Below are positions 1-54,138 of a DNA stretch of 64,000 bases, piece after piece. Source of the stretch: Bdellovibrio sp. ZAP7. Lineage in GTDB: Bacteria > Bdellovibrionota > FAC87 > UBA2466. Each line of letters opens with the position of its first letter. The first letter of the stretch is position 1. The translations under genes and the position numbers were made by a program. The stretch is taken from the NCBI GenBank assembly GCA_945878405.1, contig CAMCTJ010000001.1:70304-134303 (forward strand). The letters run 5' to 3'. The notes under the pieces are model-generated. The model had not been told where the DNA came from. It made no database searches and worked only from the letters and a program-made list of their open reading frames with translations.

Positions 1-147
1 GTCAATGCATACCTCTTGGGACCTGGTAGCCACATGTGGAAGTCTGAGCCTGAGCGTTTCACGGGTCGCATTGAGTGTGCCGGCCTTTATTGGCATTTTG
101 TAGATTTGGTCTGGATTTTCTTATTTCCGATTCTTTATCTTCTGTAA
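1..147 (+). CDS. Cytochrome c oxidase subunit III (CtaE/CoxC), C-terminal fragment truncated at the window start
   Basis: Frame 1 from nt 1 reads ...[27 protein letters not shown] and stops at 145-147. The YWHFVD(V/L)VW(L/I)FLF tail is characteristic of cox subunit III. A subunit IV-like gene follows. Confidence 0.65.
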
Positions 148-159
148 GGAGAAGCACCC

Positions 160-480
160 ATGGCATCAGAACACATGTCCGTTGAGGAAGTGAAGAAACA
201 CATTAAGGTTTACTGGATGATTTTTGGCAGTCTGCTTGTGTTGACGGCAGTAACTGTGGGGATTTCCTACATCCACTTGTCCTTCACCTTTGCAGTGATA
301 TTAGCTCTCGTGGTTGCATCCACGAAGGCATCGTTGGTAGCTCTATACTTCATGCATTTGATCTCCGAAAAGACCGCTATTTATTTAACCTTGGCGCTTA
401 CAGCAGTTTTATTCGTGATCTTAATCGTAGTTCCTTGGATGATTCCCATGGGTGCGATGAGGAGTTGGCTTGTCTCTTAA
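160..480 (+). CDS. Small membrane protein, likely caa3-type cytochrome c oxidase subunit IV
   Basis: 106 aa with three predicted TM helices. Sits directly downstream of the cox III tail, and the N-terminal EEVKKHIKVYW resembles prokaryotic CoxIV family proteins. Confidence 0.55.
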   Translation: MASEHMSVEEVKKHIKVYWMIFGSLLVLTAVTVGISYIHLSFTFAVILALVVASTKASLVALYFMHLISEKTAIYLTLALTAVLFVILIVVPWMIPMGAMRSWLVS

Positions 481-880
481 GGTTGTTCATCTCTTTTTGA
501 TCCTGTGCTCAATTTTTCTCTCGGGATTTTTTGGAGTCTGGTCGCTTCAAAACTATACTTGGGATACGGATCCGTTACTGGTTTCTTTGGGATACTTGTC
601 CCTATCTGGAACAGGTGGCTTAGTTTTTTATCTTTTTTACTTTTTGAAGAAAACCAAAGGGTTTGGACTTCTCAGTTTGGTGTTGCTTGCTTCCGTTATT
701 CAGACCCAATCGGCCTGGGCTTGTGCTGTTTGCCAATTCGGCACTCCTGATTCTCCTCTTGTGCGAGCTATTAGAGAGGGAATTTGGGTTCTGTTATTTT
801 TGCTGGTTCCGGTTCTTGCCGGCTTTTTAGGCCTTTTTATTTTCTGGGCTAAAAGAGATAAAAAAATCTCCTCACTGTAA
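470..880 (+). CDS. Hypothetical integral membrane protein (4 TM, CxxC motif)
   Basis: 136-aa ORF overlapping the upstream gene by 11 nt. Hydrophobic segments throughout and a CAVCQFGTP motif. No family recognised. Confidence 0.4.
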   Translation: MSLKVVHLFLILCSIFLSGFFGVWSLQNYTWDTDPLLVSLGYLSLSGTGGLVFYLFYFLKKTKGFGLLSLVLLASVIQTQSAWACAVCQFGTPDSPLVRAIREGIWVLLFLLVPVLAGFLGLFIFWAKRDKKISSL

Positions 881-2008
881 CGTCACTTTAATCAGCTGGC
901 GATTCTCACTCTCATAAGATCCTTTTAACTTCGCAAGCACCAACAATGTTTTTCCATCACTGGAAAGCGCCAAGTGATGTTGATGAACGGGCCCGATGAT
1001 TTGATCCCGAAGGGGATGAAGGATAACGGGTTCACCATTCTCAAACGTGCGGGGATAAATCAGACTTAGCCCCTCTTCTTCACTCCAAACAGCAAGAGTT
1101 GTCTGACGAGGATTTAAAACCATGGGGATTCTTTGTCCAAAATTGTAAAAACGACAGCCATAAATACCGTCGTCCCATAAAAGATTCTTTTCAGGATGAT
1201 CTGTTCTTACAACGAACATGTTTTGATTTCCCGCCATAAGTTCCGGAAACTGGTAAACCTCTTTCACATTTCCAGGAATCAGAGTTGAATACTGGCCCGA
1301 TTGATAAAGCTTGCAAACAGGTAAACCGGCTAGTTCGCCTTCGATTTGGATATTAAAGTACGTCAACCGAGTGCATTGGTTTTCCTTCTTAACTCGATAG
1401 AGAAAAACGTTGGGATAGGAATGGCCTTCTCCAAGATGAAATACCTCTCCAACACTCGAGTAAAGGTTACAAATATGCGGCTTGACCCCTTTCTGACCAA
1501 AGGAATAGACCTCAATCTGTTGTTGGTTCGGCCGAACGATTGAAGAAGTGACGCTAAAAAGAGAATCTCGACCGAAAAATCGGTGCCAATAAAGATGCTT
1601 CACTCTTTTTTTAAGAGACCATTTCTGCCATCGCGGAGGATTCGTGCCGGTATCAAGTGCGATGGGAGAGCCGGCAAGAGTGACATACCGTTCGTCAGGA
1701 TCCTTCACTTTTGAGAGTGAAACAGAACTGGAACCCAACAGGAAACTTTTTCCACTCTTGAGATCCAACCGAAAGATTTTTCCTAATTGATTCCGATAAA
1801 CGATCTGATTTTTTCTTTCCCAAAAGATAAATTCATGAACGGTTCCTTTCACATCAAAGACATTAACGCCCATGTTTTGAATTTTGGTAATATCTGTCAA
1901 AGGATTGGGACCATCTCCGCCCAAACACTTAATTGAACCAATCTCAGCGGCGTTGATTTGAGCAACTAAACAACAAAAAAGACCTATAGCGAACTTCAGG
2001 TTTCTCAT
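872..2008 (-). CDS. Secreted hypothetical protein, copy 1 of the duplicated cassette (paralog of 3099..4175)
   Basis: 378-aa ORF. N-terminal signal peptide MRNLKFAIGLFCCLVAQINAAE. Its ATG overlaps the upstream regulator stop as ATGA (2005-2008). Distant similarity to the 3099..4175 product. Confidence 0.6.
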   Translation of the reverse strand: MRNLKFAIGLFCCLVAQINAAEIGSIKCLGGDGPNPLTDITKIQNMGVNVFDVKGTVHEFIFWERKNQIVYRNQLGKIFRLDLKSGKSFLLGSSSVSLSKVKDPDERYVTLAGSPIALDTGTNPPRWQKWSLKKRVKHLYWHRFFGRDSLFSVTSSIVRPNQQQIEVYSFGQKGVKPHICNLYSSVGEVFHLGEGHSYPNVFLYRVKKENQCTRLTYFNIQIEGELAGLPVCKLYQSGQYSTLIPGNVKEVYQFPELMAGNQNMFVVRTDHPEKNLLWDDGIYGCRFYNFGQRIPMVLNPRQTTLAVWSEEEGLSLIYPRTFENGEPVILHPLRDQIIGPVHQHHLALSSDGKTLLVLAKLKGSYESENRQLIKVTLQ

Positions 2009-21693: not shown

Positions 21694-22821
21694 ATGCGTC
21701 TTTTCTTGATTCTTTTGGCTCTTATTTCTTTCACGGGTTTTTCTCAAGAATGTTCTCACCTTTGGCAATCTGACTTAGCTACTGGAACTATAGGCCCTAA
21801 AGGCTATTTGGGAGACACACACGCAGCTTATGGGATCCAGGCTTTTTTAAATGATGGAACAAAATACTATGTCGTGAAAGGCCGATTTCCAAAGGCACGC
21901 TTTTTTAGTGTAGAAACCTACGAGGGAAGAAAAAATGGAGCGGGTAAATCCGTTTTTGACTCAAACATCATTCCGGATTCTGGTTCGGTGAATCCTTTCA
22001 CCGATGGCGTTGCGCTCAATGCTGAACCAAGAGATTACACTCTCTTTATTGCTCCTGAGGGTTCTCCCCAATTTGGTCCCAATCAGCTGAACTTCAACAA
22101 ACGGCAAAGATATATCTCTTTTTATATTCGCTATTATGTACCCAGCTTTGGAGCACAAGTTACCGTTGCCGATCTACCACAGGTGGAAGCGTATGATCTG
22201 AAGACACGCCAACCTACTTCTTGTTCTAAATCTTGGCCTGTCGAAAATTTTACGAACTACCCCCAATTTCTGGGTAGTCTTTCCCAAAAACCAGAAGGGG
22301 TTTTTTCTTTTGGCCAAGCAAAGTGGAACAAAGGCGCCAACTCGGCTGTGGGAAAGTACGCCGAGGGCCACAGTGAAATGCGTTTTGATGAAGTCGCTTT
22401 GATTCGATTTAAAGCGCCTTCCTTTTTCAATTCATTTTCGGGACTGGGTACTTTTAATAACTCAGCTCAAGTGCGGTACTGGTCACTTTGCGAAAAGAAT
22501 TTTCCGAATAATCAGGGATTGGTTTGCTTGGCAGATTATTTAACTCCTCCTGACAAAAATGGATATGTAACTGTGGTTACTGGGAGCGGTGAGGACATCA
22601 AAGCCGAAGCCGGTAGAAGAGGTTATTATTTCATGCCCGATATGCGCCCAAAAAATGCAGTGATGATCCTTTTTGCATTTAGAAATATTTTGCCATCTGC
22701 TGATTTCAAACAGAATGACCAATACAAGGGAGACTACAATCCTCAAATGAGAATCTGTAAGGAATCTGAGTTTCTCGAGGGAAGCTGTGAGTGGTGGTCG
22801 ACTAATCAGGCTTCAGAGTGA
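21694..22821 (+). CDS. Secreted hypothetical protein
   Basis: Signal peptide MRLFLILLALISFTGFSQE. 375 aa, no family recognised. Confidence 0.5.
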   Translation: MRLFLILLALISFTGFSQECSHLWQSDLATGTIGPKGYLGDTHAAYGIQAFLNDGTKYYVVKGRFPKARFFSVETYEGRKNGAGKSVFDSNIIPDSGSVNPFTDGVALNAEPRDYTLFIAPEGSPQFGPNQLNFNKRQRYISFYIRYYVPSFGAQVTVADLPQVEAYDLKTRQPTSCSKSWPVENFTNYPQFLGSLSQKPEGVFSFGQAKWNKGANSAVGKYAEGHSEMRFDEVALIRFKAPSFFNSFSGLGTFNNSAQVRYWSLCEKNFPNNQGLVCLADYLTPPDKNGYVTVVTGSGEDIKAEAGRRGYYFMPDMRPKNAVMILFAFRNILPSADFKQNDQYKGDYNPQMRICKESEFLEGSCEWWSTNQASE

Positions 22822-22825
22822 GAAG

Positions 22826-23533
22826 CTAGGCGGCTTTTTTTCTAGATGAAAGCAACTCAAGCTGCTCCTGGAAAAATTTTCTCATCTTACCGTTTGTCTC
22901 AAGAGCAACGCACTTTTGAAAGGCAGTTGCTGCTAACTGTGGGTTGTCTAGCTCTTTGGAAATAGCAGCTAAGCAAGCCCAAGCCCGCAAGAATTGGGGC
23001 CGGACCCGTAGACATCTTTCCAAGTAAGGTATTGCAGCTACCGAATTCTTGTCATGCCAAAACAAATGCGCTCCTAAGGTAAAGAGGGCATGAGGATTCT
23101 CAGGAGAATGTCTAAGTACCCGCTCCAGAATCTCAACTCCTTTTTGGCAGTTATCCGAAGATAATTCAAAACGGGCTTGTATGATTTCGAGATAGTCATT
23201 GATTTCTGTATTGTTGGGACTTTTCATGAGAGCCATTCCCAATAGTGCCCGAGTGCGGCCGTTGGGACCCTCGCTCTCAATCATGATTTTTGAACAAAGT
23301 AACAAGAGGGCGGGATCATCCTCGTATTTTTCAGTAGAACGCAGAACCTCTTGTATATAAGTTAAGGCCGATTCGATTTGGCCCTTACGGTAAAGTTTGA
23401 GAAGCGTGGAATAGGCAGGAGTCTGCGATTTTTCAAGACCGGCACCTGTCATAACCGATTTGCAATAGGGGCAGATTCCTAAAGAGGGGCCGCTAGTTGC
23501 CCCGCAATTGTCACAAACTGTTTGAAAACTCAT
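22826..23533 (-). CDS. Zinc-ribbon plus TPR-repeat protein
   Basis: Start set at MSFQTVCDNCG (ATG 23533-23531), which forms an ATGA overlap with the upstream SPFH gene stop; the ORF track gives 23560. N-terminus CDNCG...(9 aa)...CPYCK. The remainder is TPR-like helical repeats. Confidence 0.55.
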   Translation of the reverse strand: MSFQTVCDNCGATSGPSLGICPYCKSVMTGAGLEKSQTPAYSTLLKLYRKGQIESALTYIQEVLRSTEKYEDDPALLLLCSKIMIESEGPNGRTRALLGMALMKSPNNTEINDYLEIIQARFELSSDNCQKGVEILERVLRHSPENPHALFTLGAHLFWHDKNSVAAIPYLERCLRVRPQFLRAWACLAAISKELDNPQLAATAFQKCVALETNGKMRKFFQEQLELLSSRKKAA

Positions 23534-24504
23534 AGGAGTTCCTTTCCACATTTCGGACAAAATTTAAAATCAGAAGCATTCGAAGAACCACATTGGCACA
23601 GTTTGGTCGAACTAACCCCAGCAGGTATTTTCTCAGGTTTGGGGCGATTATCTACACCAGCAAAAAGATTTCGACCTAACATGAGCCCCATCATCATATG
23701 CATAGGATCACCCTTGGCACCACTCGAACTGCCTCCAGCATTAAGCGACTCTAAAGTAGAAGCGGCTTTGTAAAGTAAGTACTCTCGGTTATCACCAATG
23801 AGCTGCATAGCTGCGCTCGCATCCATAGCCGACAAAATTTCTTTCGAAGGAAGGACAGAGAGGAGTTGGAGATCCTCTAGCCTAATACCATAAACACCCA
23901 ATGAATCGCCCACAAGATCGCTGAGTTCTCTAGCAATCATGGGCTGTCTCGTGCTGAGTTCGGAAAGGTGGGCAACTCCTTTTAGAGCTATCGGTAGGTT
24001 TTGGATTATCGCTCCTTGAACCAATTCCTCAATATCCGTAATGCTGAAGGCCGTTCGACTTCCCATCAGTTTTAGAAAAAACCTTTTGGGATTTGATATC
24101 TGAATATTGTATTGCCCAAAAGCTCGCACCGGAATCGAGCTACCGGAGATTTCAACAACGGCCGGATGGCTGGTACCCCACCGTCTCGCAGTGAATTGGC
24201 TCGCCGAAAAAAAATAAAGTTCGGTTCTCACTGGACTTTGAAACCCAAATTTCACATTCTTTATCTTCGTTAGGATGGGAAGGTTTTCAGAAGTGAGCAA
24301 ATGGGTTCCCGGACCCAAAAAATCGGTTATTTGCCCTCGATGAACAACTAAAACTCCCTGGTTTGGTCGGACAATGACGGCCGTTCCTTGATAAAGATCT
24401 GCCAAACCTTCGAAAGGAACTCGGGCACAAAGTATGCTGCCGGAAGGATCCTGATACTCGTAGATGCCACGAAAGAAGAGACTTTGTTGAGCGACTTTAG
24501 GCAC
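23530..24504 (-). CDS. SPFH/Band-7 family protein (Band_7_1 type) with a C-terminal zinc ribbon
   Basis: VIVRPNQGVLVVHRGQITDFLGPGTHLLTSENLPILTKIKNVKFGFQSPVRTELYFF follows the Band_7_1 family core (...VFGPG.Y.L.TDNLPIL..LKGWKYGF.SPF..EVYF). Ends in ...CQCGSSNASDFKFCPKCGKEL. Confidence 0.7.
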   Translation of the reverse strand: MPKVAQQSLFFRGIYEYQDPSGSILCARVPFEGLADLYQGTAVIVRPNQGVLVVHRGQITDFLGPGTHLLTSENLPILTKIKNVKFGFQSPVRTELYFFSASQFTARRWGTSHPAVVEISGSSIPVRAFGQYNIQISNPKRFFLKLMGSRTAFSITDIEELVQGAIIQNLPIALKGVAHLSELSTRQPMIARELSDLVGDSLGVYGIRLEDLQLLSVLPSKEILSAMDASAAMQLIGDNREYLLYKAASTLESLNAGGSSSGAKGDPMHMMMGLMLGRNLFAGVDNRPKPEKIPAGVSSTKLCQCGSSNASDFKFCPKCGKELL

Positions 24505-24710
24505 AGAAACCTCCTGGAAGGCTTGTCTGTATTATTAACCCCACTTAATCCTATCAGAGTTCGTATTTCGCACCCTAAGCATCAATTGTGAAGATTTATA
24601 AGTTCATGAATCTGCAAAAAAAAGGCACTGCTTCGTACTTGTTGGACAATTGATAACGGTATTTCGGAAAACCAGATAGGCTTCTGAGCGAAATGCGGTA
24701 ATGTCAGAGG

Positions 24711-25025
24711 ATGGTGAAACTTTTGGTTCTCATCTCCTTTGTTATCCCATTGCTCACTTCCGCGGCACACGCTTGCTGTTGTAGCAAGGAAGAATCAAAG
24801 TCAGACCAGAGCTCGCACTCCTCCTGCCACGAAGTATCTTCGCAAAGCAAAGGCGATGTCGAGCAGCCAAAGACCCAGTGCCCGAAGACCTGCTGCACGC
24901 TGGTAGCTCTGGCCACTAAATATAGCTTCTCTATCACTGCATCGTCTGAGCTTCTTTCAACTTCTCTTGCTCAGATGCCTGCGAACGTCTTCTACGACTC
25001 GCAGAAGCCACCTCCTAGAGTCTAA
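24711..25025 (+). CDS. Small secreted cysteine-cluster protein (hypothetical, possible metal-binding)
   Basis: 104 aa. Signal-like N-terminus MVKLLVLISFVIPLLTSAAHA, followed by CCC...SSCHE...CPKTCC clusters. Confidence 0.4.
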   Translation: MVKLLVLISFVIPLLTSAAHACCCSKEESKSDQSSHSSCHEVSSQSKGDVEQPKTQCPKTCCTLVALATKYSFSITASSELLSTSLAQMPANVFYDSQKPPPRV

Positions 25026-25118
25026 GACCTCCGCATTTTTGCTTAATCAAGAAAGGTGGAACGACCCTCTCCAAGGGGAGTTGTGTCCTGCCCACCACAA
25101 ACATAATTGGAGAATCTG

Positions 25119-25370
25119 ATGAAACAGTTAACGGTTACAGGGCTGCTGTCTTTGATGGCGGTCACATTCATATCAATGTATTCGCCCAGCGCGCTCGCTT
25201 CCCACGAAGGGAACGAACACGCGGTAAGCGATAACCAAACAAAGGCCCCTTGCCACTGCGTGGACAAGGAAAAAGCCGGAGGTTGTGAGTCGTGTGAGTG
25301 TGAAGAAGGATGTGATTGCTGCGAAGAAGGCTGTGGCTGCGATTGCTGCAAGCCTGAATCGAAGCAGTAA
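25119..25370 (+). CDS. Small secreted Cys-rich protein with a metallothionein-like C-terminal cluster
   Basis: Start at the ATG at 25119, with GGAGAA SD 6 nt upstream; the ORF track's 25107 is a TTG. Signal peptide MKQLTVTGLLSLMAVTFISMYSPSALA. C-terminus PCHCVDKEKAGGCESCECEEGCDCCEEGCGCDCCKP has 13 Cys in about 37 aa. A terminator follows. Confidence 0.5.
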   Translation: MKQLTVTGLLSLMAVTFISMYSPSALASHEGNEHAVSDNQTKAPCHCVDKEKAGGCESCECEEGCDCCEEGCGCDCCKPESKQ

Positions 25371-25387
25371 TTGAATCCGTAGTTCCG

Positions 25388-25424
25388 GCGGCCGGTTGTT
25401 ATGCGACCGGCCGCTTTTTATTTT
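25388..25424 (+). terminator. Rho-independent terminator
   Basis: GCGGCCGGT-(9 nt)-ACCGGCCGC stem (25388-25396 / 25406-25414) followed by TTTTTATTTT, 18 nt after the stop of the Cys-rich gene. Confidence 0.7.
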
Positions 25425-25575
25425 CTGGACAGAACGATACTCAGATTTCTGAAACGGGCGGCAACAGTTATCGTTATACTCTGCTGAAAGTTTTTCTGAT
25501 TTTAATGTAAATCCGTTGGGCATCTTCTGCATTGTTTTGACGGCTGAATAAGCCTGTGAAAGAGCGGAATATCTT

Positions 25576-26532
25576 TTGCACCTCTTTATTATGCTATTTA
25601 GAAATAGATTTTTCTCGGCGTTTTGTTTGGTTTTGGCTTTAAGTCTACTGAGCGGGTGTGAGTTTGACCTGGCTGGACTGTTTCCACCCACACCTTCTGA
25701 TCCTCCAGAGGTTTGTGCTTACCTGCAAACTAGTGTTGTTACAGATATGACTGAAGGATACGCTGCTGGCAATTTGGAAATCGACGAATCATCCAGTATG
25801 AATAAGTTTCCTCGGTCTGCTGTTGTTTCATCCGGGGAATGCACTAGTCCACTTATAAGATTGGTGCTTTCAGATTTCGAGAGTTCATTTCATTTGGGAC
25901 CTGACGGCGCCACACTCTCTGATGTAATTATTTCTTTTCATCCAAACGTGATACTCAATAAGGAGTATATTTTAAATTCTTCTGAGGAGGAAAGTCCGAT
26001 TCAAGTGGAAATGCATTCGGTAGAGAGGAATTCTTGCTTGTCCATCGTGCGCGTTCACTTACTAGAAGAGGCCCGTATCAAGATCACCGCGCTACCCCAA
26101 AAGATCACGGAACCAGATGAGATGAAGCTTTCCTTTTCTCTATCCATTGATGGAAGTCATGTTCTGAAAGGTCAGTTCTCAGGAGTGGTTCCACTTCCAA
26201 GAGATAGTTATTTCTCGAATTCGGACCCGGTACAATGCGAGCGTGAATATAATGCGGTTTCGAATTATCAGTCTCAGCTAGCGACAGTAGACTTGTGTCA
26301 GAGAAATAGCGATTGCATCCTGAGCGATATTACTCGTAAGAATAGTTGTATGCCTCTTTCGGTTAACAAGAATGCCACAAGCCTCGATGCTTTACGAAGT
26401 GCCGTTGAAGAGTACGAAGAGGTGTTTCCCTCTTATTATAACCGTTGCTATTATTATGGCGTTAACAGTGTCGTCTTGCCTGCCTGCGGAAATGGCCATT
26501 GCAAATCGGGTCTATACGAAAAAGTTTACTAG
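25576..26532 (+). CDS. Cys-rich lipoprotein (hypothetical)
   Basis: Lipobox ...LALSLLSGC-EFD. 318 aa with at least 12 Cys scattered through the sequence. No family recognised. Confidence 0.5.
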   Translation: MHLFIMLFRNRFFSAFCLVLALSLLSGCEFDLAGLFPPTPSDPPEVCAYLQTSVVTDMTEGYAAGNLEIDESSSMNKFPRSAVVSSGECTSPLIRLVLSDFESSFHLGPDGATLSDVIISFHPNVILNKEYILNSSEEESPIQVEMHSVERNSCLSIVRVHLLEEARIKITALPQKITEPDEMKLSFSLSIDGSHVLKGQFSGVVPLPRDSYFSNSDPVQCEREYNAVSNYQSQLATVDLCQRNSDCILSDITRKNSCMPLSVNKNATSLDALRSAVEEYEEVFPSYYNRCYYYGVNSVVLPACGNGHCKSGLYEKVY

Positions 26533-26541
26533 ATTTTTATC

Positions 26542-26633
26542 TGGCGGAGAGGAGAGGATTCGAACCTCCGATACAGTGTTACCCGTATAACGGTTTAGCA
26601 AACCGCCGCCTTCGACCACTCGGCCACCTCTCC
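26542..26633 (-). tRNA. tRNA-Ser (anticodon GCT)
   Basis: Reverse complement folds as GGAGAGG-TG-GCCGAGTGGTCGAAGGC-G-GCGGT-TTGCTAA-ACCGT, a long variable arm, then GGAGG-TTCGAAT-CCTCT-CCTCTCC-G-CCA. Anticodon GCU. Type II (long variable arm). Confidence 0.85.
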
Positions 26634-26691: not shown

Positions 26692-26781
26692 TGGCGGAGA
26701 GGGGGGGATTCGAACCCCCGATACCCTTACGGGTATAACGGTTTTCAAGACCGCCGCTTTCAACCACTCAGCCACCTCTCC
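26692..26781 (-). tRNA. tRNA-Ser (anticodon TGA)
   Basis: Reverse complement gives the same acceptor, D and T arms as the neighbouring tRNA-Ser. The anticodon loop is CTTGAAA (anticodon UGA). Long variable arm. Encoded CCA. Confidence 0.85.
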
Positions 26782-53334: not shown

Positions 53335-54138
53335 ATGCCAGTCACGTTAAGTCTTATTCTTGCTCTTCTTGCCGCTGGTGGCTTATTTTTTTCCCTCTAT
53401 GCGGTGATTACTGCCCTAGTGGGTGGAAAACGCGCAAAAGCGAGCCCCAAAATGGGCATTTCTCCGGGAGATGTCAGAGGCGCTCTCAACGTGTGGGTTG
53501 TTTGGGATCCCGCCCAGTTTAATGTCCAGGTTTATCGACTCATTTTTAGATTTGCGAGTCCCTACAGTTCTCAGAAAGAAGGGATCTTCTGTGTCACTTA
53601 TGACAATGCTCAGGTAGCCCCATTTACTCAAATAGTAAAAGTTCCGGATCGGTTTGTGGATCTCATCCAAAACTCAAAAGAAAAGTTTCTCATGACAGTG
53701 GAAATGAAAACAGTCGAAGAGTTAACTCTGATGAAGACTGTGACCTCCGCAAAACTAAAGGCCCTTTTCACCGGTACTGGAGATCAGCCCGAAATTGCCA
53801 ACAAATTGGCTTTGGTCGAAGAAGACAAAGCCGCTGTTTATACTTTGGACTTTTCTGAATTACAGGTACGTCGTAAAAAATTACGCGACCTAGAGGCTCA
53901 AGCACAAGCAAAGGCCAAAGCAAAACCTGCTGCAGCTCCAGCGAAACCAGCAGCCGTTGCACCTGCTCCAGCAACAGCCGCAGCAGCAGCTCCTACTCCA
54001 GCTCCAGCCGTTCCGACGGCTCCGGCTCCAGTGGCTGCGCAAGCTGCTGACAAGAGTCCTGTCGAGACTGCGGTCAAATCTGTTCGCGATTTAGTAGCAG
54101 CTTCAAATGCTGCTAAAGCTCCTGTTGAAAAACCTTAA
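53335..54138 (+). CDS. Membrane-anchored protein with an Ala/Pro-rich C-terminal tail, hypothetical
   Basis: N-terminal TM helix (LSLILALLAAGGLFFSLYAVITALVGG). C-terminal roughly 90 aa is a low-complexity AKPAAAPAKPAAVAPAPATAAAAAPTPAPAVP stretch. Confidence 0.45.
   Translation: MPVTLSLILALLAAGGLFFSLYAVITALVGGKRAKASPKMGISPGDVRGALNVWVVWDPAQFNVQVYRLIFRFASPYSSQKEGIFCVTYDNAQVAPFTQIVKVPDRFVDLIQNSKEKFLMTVEMKTVEELTLMKTVTSAKLKALFTGTGDQPEIANKLALVEEDKAAVYTLDFSELQVRRKKLRDLEAQAQAKAKAKPAAAPAKPAAVAPAPATAAAAAPTPAPAVPTAPAPVAAQAADKSPVETAVKSVRDLVAASNAAKAPVEKP

Follow-up and report, generated by a model that had tools for sequence, protein, structure and literature searches.

Organization of the locus

The 64-kb stretch of DNA from Bdellovibrio sp. 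ZAP7 analyzed here (the window) contains two small adjacent open reading frames (ORFs), ORF1 and ORF2, which are read on the plus strand and are predicted to encode exported cysteine-rich proteins. ORF1 resembles the CutF-like leader peptides that sense copper during their own translation, and ORF2 resembles metallothioneins. The pair was compared with contigs and loci of relatives designated L001–L004, L006–L010, and L012. L001–L004 and L007 are metagenome contigs of the same species, L006 is a metagenome-assembled genome of Pseudobdellovibrionaceae, and L008 and L010 are marine contigs. The sequence of L010 is chimeric past CCDGG and was excluded for the C-terminus of ORF2. The following elements were recognized, all on the plus strand.

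About 24647–25422, plus strand: complete conserved unit of two genes, putative promoter and terminator included, the sole block common to relatives
24650–24657, plus strand: TTGATAAC motif at the left edge of the unit, conserved, a possible −35 element or operator
24711–25025, plus strand: ORF1, a 104-aa CutF-like leader and putative metal-sensing arrest peptide, identified from substitution rates and conserved architecture
24879–24896, plus strand: codons of the putative metal-binding motif CPKTCC (CxxxCC), residues 57–62 of ORF1
25008–25025, plus strand: codons of PPPRV and the stop, the arrest-like C-terminus of ORF1, conserved as PPPR-x-stop
25026–25118, plus strand: 93-nt spacer between ORF1 and ORF2, with a conserved stem-loop at 25055–25096
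25109–25112, plus strand: Shine-Dalgarno (SD) sequence GGAG of ORF2, 6 nt before the ATG and invariant in four aligned sequences
25119–25370, plus strand: ORF2, a predicted 83-aa Sec-exported metallothionein-like protein, identified from substitution rates and composition
25251–25349, plus strand: Cys-dense tail of ORF2, CHCVDKEKAGGCESCECEEGCDCCEEGCGCDCC, with 12 Cys in 33 residues (C45–C77), identified from composition
25387–25425, plus strand: intrinsic terminator closing the unit, a 13-bp stem with nine GC pairs (25387–25415) followed by a T-run, 87% identical to L006

Both reading frames are conserved genes

On the pattern of substitutions, ORF1 and ORF2 are real genes under purifying selection. 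Using L006, a relative that is 58 to 72% identical, as the reference (72% amino-acid identity for ORF1 and at least 58% for ORF2), the ratio of nonsynonymous to synonymous substitution rates (dN/dS) was 0.20 for ORF1 (dS 0.84) and 0.12 for ORF2 (dS 0.67). All insertions and deletions relative to L006 were multiples of three, 27 nt in ORF1 and 222 nt in ORF2, and both frames were kept in the same-species contigs L001–L004 and L007. Signal peptides were found by inspection in every lineage. The earlier note on this DNA, made from the sequence alone, had described ORF2 at these coordinates as a Cys-dense, acidic, metallothionein-like protein with a signal peptide, and had named a frame not conserved in relatives as one outcome that would speak against it. 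The frames are conserved, the indels are in frame, and ORF2 is a genuine conserved gene.

It could be argued that one or both ORFs are not genes and that their many Cys reflect an accident of composition or a gene on the opposite strand, given that gene callers left ORF1 uncalled in the window lineage and placed an antisense ORF over ORF2 in L008, and that the antisense frames of TGC/TGT-rich DNA are open. This explanation has next to no probability and is effectively refuted already by the purifying selection in the frames given above, by the 27- and 222-nt in-frame indels, and by the conservation of the signal peptides, the SD sequence, and the terminator. The skipped ORF1 and the wrong strand called over ORF2 in one relative amount to an annotation gap, and the family is therefore probably under-represented in protein databases.

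ORF1 has the architecture of a CutF-like leader

CutF of Rhodobacter capsulatus and the CutF-like and DUF2946 upstream ORFs (uORFs) are small Sec-exported proteins whose nascent chain detects periplasmic copper through a Cys motif at a time when a proline motif at the C-terminus lies in the ribosome, and the downstream gene is controlled in cis (PMC9973294, PMC9426467, bioRxiv 10.1101/2025.02.05.636593). By the published definition, a CutF-like protein is shorter than 150 aa, has a signal peptide and PP among its 15 C-terminal residues, and is followed on the same strand, at a distance of less than 100 nt, by another gene (PMC9973294). ORF1 has every one of these defining features, being 104 aa long with a signal peptide, PPP in its last five residues, and a same-strand gene 93 nt on. 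The R. capsulatus protein itself ends in GPPPRL-stop, with the PPP experimentally required for stalling, carries a CxxxC motif plus two upstream Cys, and is degraded after export.

The sequence of ORF1 (MVKLLVLISFVIPLLTSAAHACCCSKEE...CH...CPKTCC...KPPPRV) has Cys at positions 22–24, 39, 57, 61, and 62, and a probable signal-peptide cleavage site SAA/HACCC (the slash marks the cleavage site). Signal peptides of ORF1 and ORF2 were assigned by inspection of the n-, h-, and c-regions and the cleavage site, using as criteria Lys in the n-region, a hydrophobic core of 15 to 18 residues, and a cleavage site of the A-x-A type. By the same inspection, the three regions of ORF1 and the small-x-small site [SAG]-x-A/[HQ]-x-CCC were conserved in five lineages. 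C57, C61, and C62 of the CxxxCC motif were invariant in all six family members, as were C23, C24, H36, and C39, and C22 was kept in five of the six. The C-terminal PPPR-x-stop was kept in the window, L001, L006, and L008, in the form KPPPRV-stop in the window and PPPRA-stop in the other three. The distance from the Cys motif to PPPR was 37 residues in four lineages and 38 in a fifth, at 32% identity, and the C-terminal half of ORF1 was nearly invariant between the window and L006. The gene downstream of ORF1 was always the Cys-rich ORF2, after a spacer that measured 93 nt in the window and was longer in L006 (96 nt) and L008 (123 nt). The AlphaFold model of ORF1 was of low confidence and showed no confident fold beyond the signal-peptide helix. 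Additionally, the stretch 24860–25040, which spans the 3′ half and the stop codon of ORF1, is C-rich and G-poor, with a GC skew reaching −0.37, in the top 4% of the window.

ORF1 thus shares with CutF, CruR of Bordetella pertussis, and CopL of Xanthomonas a length under 150 aa, a Sec signal peptide, and a Cys motif preceded by upstream Cys. The CxxxCC of ORF1 corresponds to the CxxxC of CutF, both proteins end in PPPR-x-stop (KPPPRV in ORF1 and GPPPRL in CutF), and a short, stem-loop-containing spacer separates ORF1, like other CutF-like uORFs, from an exported, metal-related gene on the same strand. The 3′ part of cruR, which contains a rut (Rho-utilization) region, is C-rich and G-poor in a similar way. 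There are also differences. The motif spacing of ORF1 is shorter, at 37 residues compared with about 40 in CutF and a conserved 45 ± 2 between the metal motif and the arrest motif of DUF2946 uORFs; ORF1 has no significant match to Pfam DUF2946 or NCBIfam CopL_fam; and, in contrast to CutF, the SD sequence of its target gene is not visibly shielded. The target itself is a Cys-rich mini-protein, outside the neighbor classes that the survey of CutF-like proteins named for those seen at least 20 times, namely multicopper oxidase, RND efflux component, TonB-dependent transporter, PCuAC, CusF, HupE/UreJ, and NosZ (PMC9973294). The lineage of ORF1 is Bdellovibrionota-like, and the survey mentions neither Bdellovibrio nor metallothionein.

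On the basis of this architecture, ORF1 probably works like a CutF-type leader, not filed as a member of DUF2946, and ORF1 and ORF2 are probably a sensor and its target. The earlier note had recognized ORF1 as a second small signal-peptide protein with Cys clusters, which holds; its view of ORF1 as simply a secreted Cys mini-protein gives way to that of a probable CutF-like leader.

Two relatives deserve separate mention. In L009, at 394–444, RPPRS replaces PPPRA-stop and the frame continues 12 codons further; coverage there is low (about 3x), and the difference is either a sequencing error or a lineage without the terminal position of the motif. In L012, plasmid pDSHI06 of Dinoroseobacter shibae, the ORF at 1822–2163 is annotated as 'hypothetical' and lies upstream of a copper-resistance multicopper oxidase. 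It has a signal peptide, C-x6-C, a spacing of 38 residues as in one lineage of the ORF1 family, and SPPPRS-stop, which by sequence make it a clear CutF-type uORF, unannotated as such.

ORF2 is predicted to be an exported metallothionein-like protein

The signal peptide of ORF2 was assigned to residues 1–27, with cleavage at ALA/SHEG (by inspection), leaving a mature protein of 56 aa; that of the marine orthologue is of textbook form (KKK-LLALLAVLLM-ISA/E). Mature ORF2 contains 12 Cys (21%), three His, and 14 acidic residues (Asp or Glu), lacks Met and aromatic residues, and has a pI of about 4.5. The earlier note had counted 13 Cys in about 37 residues of the tail; the high density stands, and the count is corrected to 12 in 33. 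Among the stop-free 35-residue stretches in all six frames of the window, the ORF2 tail has the highest Cys density, one well above anything that chance would give. The runner-up, with 11 Cys in 35 residues, lies on the minus strand at about 53890–54000 (near 53997) and was rejected as a gene because it is antisense to an Ala/Pro-rich part of the ORF 53335–54138 on the plus strand.

The number of Cys in ORF2 varied among relatives (9, 10, 12, 33, and at least 24), and the substitutions C47Q, C61W, and C76G occurred among relatives within 90% identity. The tail grows by repeats in L006 and L008; in L006, CxC-rich and GGTC[SQ] repeats bring ORF2 to 33 Cys in 130 residues. Such variation in number and parity argues against a fixed disulfide scaffold, and together with the acidity and the repeat growth it favors metal-thiolate clusters. 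No Pfam or NCBIfam match was obtained for ORF2 at E-values up to 10, including none to a recognized metallothionein family, and the sole similarity in the PDB search was a pattern match to fish metallothionein that was not significant (E 3.3). The AlphaFold model was of low confidence without a confident fold. As judged from its composition and conservation, ORF2 is an acidic, aromatic-free, metallothionein-like protein for which Sec export and metal binding are predicted.

The two genes form a self-contained and portable unit

Between 22797 and 26539, the block 24647–25422 was the only one common to the window and L001–L003, and its identity to these contigs was 95%, compared with 98.8% for the flanks. 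Within 10 kb on either side, the window and L006 were similar only over the unit, from the TTGATAAC motif to just past the terminator. The noncoding parts were well conserved between these two, with 80% identity in the hairpin, 85% in the SD region, and 87% in the terminator, compared with 63 to 70% at third codon positions. The strong terminator that the earlier note placed after ORF2 was confirmed. The order of ORF1, a 93- to 123-nt spacer, and ORF2 was kept in the window lineage, in L006, and in the marine contigs L008 and L010, and the pairing persists although ORF1 identity drops to 32%. In L008 and L010, where ORF1 is 32% identical, the ORF that follows 123 nt on encodes a signal peptide and a Cys-rich protein with ECTCENC-type repeats like those of L006. 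L009 has an ORF1 homologue, and its contig stops a few codons into the following reading frame. Taken together, 24647–25422 is a self-contained, portable unit. As a separate observation, the 33 nt past the terminator (25423–25455) are 78% identical to the distant L006 and only 47% identical to the same-species L001, a pattern that suggests exchange or insertion of the unit with right ends that differ slightly.

At the left edge, TTGATAAC sits 60 to 63 nt 5′ of the ORF1 start in all four lineages in which it was found (the window, L006, L008, and L009). No convincing or conserved −10 element accompanies it, and a promoter scan upstream of ORF1 gave no sigma-70 match. Readings of the upstream region as an ECF-like promoter or a cop box were inconsistent between lineages and were rejected. 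A search of 24400–25600 against Rfam returned only a sub-threshold small-RNA match overlapping the terminator (24.8 bits compared with a gathering score of 100), which was taken as chance.

When ORF2, ORF1, and an ORF2 profile were used as queries in word-indexed homologue searches, P0001 (90% identical) and a marine fragment, P0004, were the only proteins returned. HMMER with ORF1 against 1.84 billion representatives returned only two relatives, of about 32% identity, and a metagenome scan with the ORF1 alignment, for which poor N-terminal patterns had been chosen, returned one near-identical locus. A tblastn search of ORF1 against 72,556 plasmids gave no match, and neither ORF had a significant match in scans of Pfam, NCBIfam, and PADLOC.

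Genomic neighborhood and likely metal

Metal-related genes adjoin the unit in two of three independent contexts. In L006, the unit lies next to a minus-strand operon whose products are a multicopper oxidase, a methyltransferase, and a P-type ATPase that carries YHS and HMBD domains; a sigma factor of the ECF type is encoded beyond it. In L008, an ArsP_1 (PF03773) permease gene at 2–1060 (minus strand) is divergent from the unit, a hint that some versions of the unit handle arsenic or other thiophilic ions rather than copper. A metal role, one of the options raised in the earlier note, is backed by the copper ATPase and multicopper oxidase of L006 and by the ArsP-type permease of L008, and copper is the most likely metal. 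Since Cys-type CutF-like leaders are mostly linked to copper, and copper genes adjoin the unit in L006, Cu(I) is our best guess for the metal, with other soft ions being possible. We also noted that the multicopper oxidase next to the unit in L006 (11174–13345, minus strand) is 723 aa long, that its three cupredoxin domains end at about residue 530, and that no Pfam model matches the final 190 or so residues; this C-terminal extension may be a fused outer-membrane CopB-like part.

In the window, an SPFH/Band_7 gene (23530–24504, minus strand) belonging to an SPFH/TPR operon (TPR/zinc-ribbon; 22826–24504) is divergent from the unit, and an ORF at 25576–26532 encodes a 318-aa protein with a lipobox (LLSGC) and 12 Cys. 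The earlier note had placed the divergent SPFH operon and the Cys-rich lipoprotein correctly. In contigs with 98.8% identical flanks, the SPFH operon is absent and the lipoprotein is replaced by an 85-aa ORF and a 631-aa ankyrin/LprI protein, or by nothing. A functional link of either to the unit was therefore rejected, both being strain-specific and no part of the feature.

The region around the unit is a hypervariable islet beside two tRNA-Ser genes. These genes, in tandem on the minus strand at 26542–26633 and 26692–26781 (anticodons GCT and TGA), are 83% identical to each other and form the right border of the islet. At its left border, 21694–22821 encodes a 375-aa secreted-looking protein with N-terminal MRLFLILLALISFTGFS and no Pfam match, which is conserved in related strains.

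Spacer structure

The stem-loop at 25055–25096 consists of an outer stem GGUGG/CCACC and an inner hairpin CUCC-AAGG-GGAG at 25069–25080, and was predicted in every lineage. The RNAalifold consensus additionally paired CUCC at 25012–25015, within the proline codons, with the GGAG of the SD sequence over 4 bp; the bases of this pairing never vary, and RNAalifold found no covariation in it. Manual comparison across lineages suggested a small hairpin with the stems CUCC/GGAG, AACC/GGUU, and CCCC/GGGG, which was not counted given that the alignment of L008 and L009 is too ambiguous. A stem-loop mechanism as in CutF is not claimed here, as the minimum-free-energy, ensemble, and ribosome-blocked folds and RNAalifold gave no significant stability, covariation, or unusual occlusion of the SD sequence.

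Proposed mechanism and alternative explanations

We propose, with about even confidence, that the unit is a portable sense-and-sequester cassette for metal stress, composed of a CutF-like leader and an exported metallothionein-like output. ORF1 would be exported during translation, and its CxxxCC motif would emerge in the periplasm while PPPR-x, 37 residues behind, is at the peptidyl-transferase center. Binding of a metal, most likely Cu(I), by the emerging cysteines would alter ribosome pausing at the PPP codons, and the altered pausing on ORF1 would set the amount of ORF2 that is made. Coupling might occur through the opening of RNA structure in the 93-nt spacer or through control of how Rho gains access to the 3′ half of ORF1, which is C-rich and G-poor; attenuation of the Rho type is equally possible, because this C-over-G stretch resembles the rut region of cruR. 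ORF2 would be the output, a periplasmic metallothionein-like protein whose thiolate clusters hold soft metal ions. If ORF2 were made only with metal present, its thiols could be loaded with metal before disulfides form in the oxidizing periplasm. Export, metal binding, the identity of the metal, stalling, and the mode of coupling are what we infer for the unit. A bolder version, which we hold to be possible but doubtful, would make ORF2 the first natural bacterial metallothionein exported through Sec, its synthesis being gated during translation by an unrecognized, divergent branch of CutF-like leaders, and the unit an autonomous, horizontally portable cassette that senses periplasmic Cu(I).

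Several observations weigh against the proposed cassette. At the level of RNA, the stem-loop does not include the SD sequence of ORF2 and ends 12 nt before it, and the fold energies of the spacer are no better than those of shuffled sequences (z-scores of +0.65 and +0.67, not significant). Blocking the mRNA to 12 nt past the stop barely moves the accessibility of the SD sequence, from 0.38 to 0.48, and the accessibility of the ORF2 ribosome-binding site is ordinary for the window (0.40 compared with a median of 0.44, the 35th percentile). The pair is carried by only about four independent lineages, too little variation for a covariation test. At the level of protein, none of the six ORF1 family members matches Pfam DUF2946 (PF11162) at E-values up to 10. 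NCBIfam CopL_fam (NF033807) gives a weak match to one of the six, the L006 protein (E 0.0046); this match in itself speaks for a leader of this type but is below the cutoff (17.6 compared with 40 bits). In hhalign and profile comparisons of ORF1 with CopL and the Dinoroseobacter uORF only the PPPR end aligns. The signal peptides were judged by eye, and free thiols do not last in the oxidizing periplasm, which makes a metallothionein-like state of ORF2 there uncertain. Finally, no copper ATPase or oxidase lies within the 64 kb of the window, and the copper context of the unit comes from one genome, L006.

The absence of a detectably shielded SD sequence and the failure of ORF1 to match the DUF2946 and CopL hidden Markov models are in line with both proteins being stable periplasmic Cys-rich metal binders that act together, ORF1 being, for example, a chaperone or partner for the loading or protection of ORF2, without control in cis and with PPPR as a structural or protease-protective tail. 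The near-invariant C-terminal half of ORF1 in the comparison with L006 would also fit a folded or interacting domain. However, AlphaFold gave ORF1 no confident fold outside the signal peptide, CutF itself is degraded after export, and the preservation of PPPR-x-stop and of the 37-residue spacing at 32% identity is not readily explained by a partner protein, whereas an arrest peptide explains it. We consider such a partnership unlikely. The same architecture could also serve a metal other than copper, for example As(III), Cd(II), Hg(II), Zn(II), or Ag(I). Many soft ions are bound by sites built of thiolates alone, the window lacks copper genes, and the marine version adjoins the ArsP-type permease; against this, Cys-motif CutF-like proteins are mostly located upstream of copper genes, and the sole relative with long context has a copper ATPase (YHS/HMBD) and a multicopper oxidase adjacent to the unit, so that we give a different metal a rather small chance.

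The remaining explanation concerns ORF2, which is small, secreted, and rich in Cys, and might be a disulfide-rich secreted peptide (a toxin, an antimicrobial, or a signal) or the precursor of a peptide that is made by the ribosome and modified after translation (RiPP) instead of a metal binder. The host is probably a predatory Bdellovibrio-like bacterium, which would suit a secreted peptide, and the bufferin RiPP precursors likewise bear Sec signal peptides and Cys (PMC11626156). This explanation appears improbable to us, given that the number and parity of the Cys change even among close relatives and that the protein is strongly acidic with repeats that expand. The RiPP idea, which the earlier note had also raised, finds no modifying enzyme beside the pair in three unrelated contexts and has no support: in the window, L001, L006, and L008, no gene for MNIO/DUF692, DUF2063, a radical-SAM enzyme, a protease, or an ABC exporter adjoins the pair, and ORF2 has no Pfam match to DUF2282 or bufferins.

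Relation to known metal-binding proteins

Bacterial metallothioneins are regarded as cytoplasmic. Like SmtA/BmtA, MymT, and the eukaryotic metallothioneins, ORF2 is small and aromatic-free, with about 21 to 25% Cys in CxC, CC, and CxxC arrangements, lacks a predicted metal-free fold, and varies in length by repeats; its resemblance to the pattern of the fish metallothionein β-domain is the nonsignificant one given above. In contrast to them, ORF2 has a Sec signal peptide and would thus act outside the cytoplasm, is very acidic, shows no sequence homology to any metallothionein family, and conserves an N-terminal H-x-H...PCH segment.

Csp1 of methanotrophs is an exported, Cys-rich, high-capacity store for Cu(I) outside the cytoplasm. 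Whereas Csp1 is a Tat-exported four-helix bundle with a Cys-lined core, ORF2 is of the Sec type, has no predicted helices, and shows CxC/CC spacing of the metallothionein type. No helical bundle was predicted for ORF2, its signal peptide has no twin-arginine motif, and it has no Pfam match, which leaves the comparison with Csp copper-storage proteins suggested in the earlier note without support. PcoE and SilE, both small and disordered, are induced by metal stress and act as a first line of metal buffering in the periplasm. They bind through Met and His, whereas mature ORF2 lacks Met and has only three His alongside its 12 Cys. The bufferins, which are RiPP metallophores modified by MNIO enzymes, are small Sec-signal, Cys-containing proteins that buffer periplasmic copper, and ORF2 is alike in type (PMC11626156). 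However, bufferins depend on neighboring genes for MNIO (DUF692) and DUF2063 proteins, their precursors belong to the DUF2282 or BUF_6/12Cys families, and their Cys, few and fixed, become thiooxazoles, whereas the Cys of ORF2 are many and variable. A full-text literature search found no paper with the phrases 'periplasmic metallothionein', 'exported metallothionein', or 'secreted metallothionein', and the matches listed for 'extracellular metallothionein' were almost all mammalian.

Significance

We regard the combination predicted here as a new variation on known systems, in which the target of a divergent CutF-like leader is of a new class, namely an exported metallothionein-like protein. 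If ORF2 acts as proposed, periplasmic copper would be buffered in a fourth way, by a plain, unmodified, Cys-dense protein that travels through Sec, besides Met/His sponges, folded Cys bundles, and enzymatically modified peptides. Its existence raises the question of how a dozen or more thiols stay reduced or metal-loaded in an oxidizing compartment, and the pairing with a CutF-like leader offers a testable answer, namely production only with metal present. The sensing of metals by nascent chains would be extended to a new phylum, to a new sequence family missed by the hidden Markov models, and to a new class of regulated target. At only 0.8 kb, with its own putative promoter and its terminator, the cassette could serve as a compact metal biosensor or a bioremediation part.

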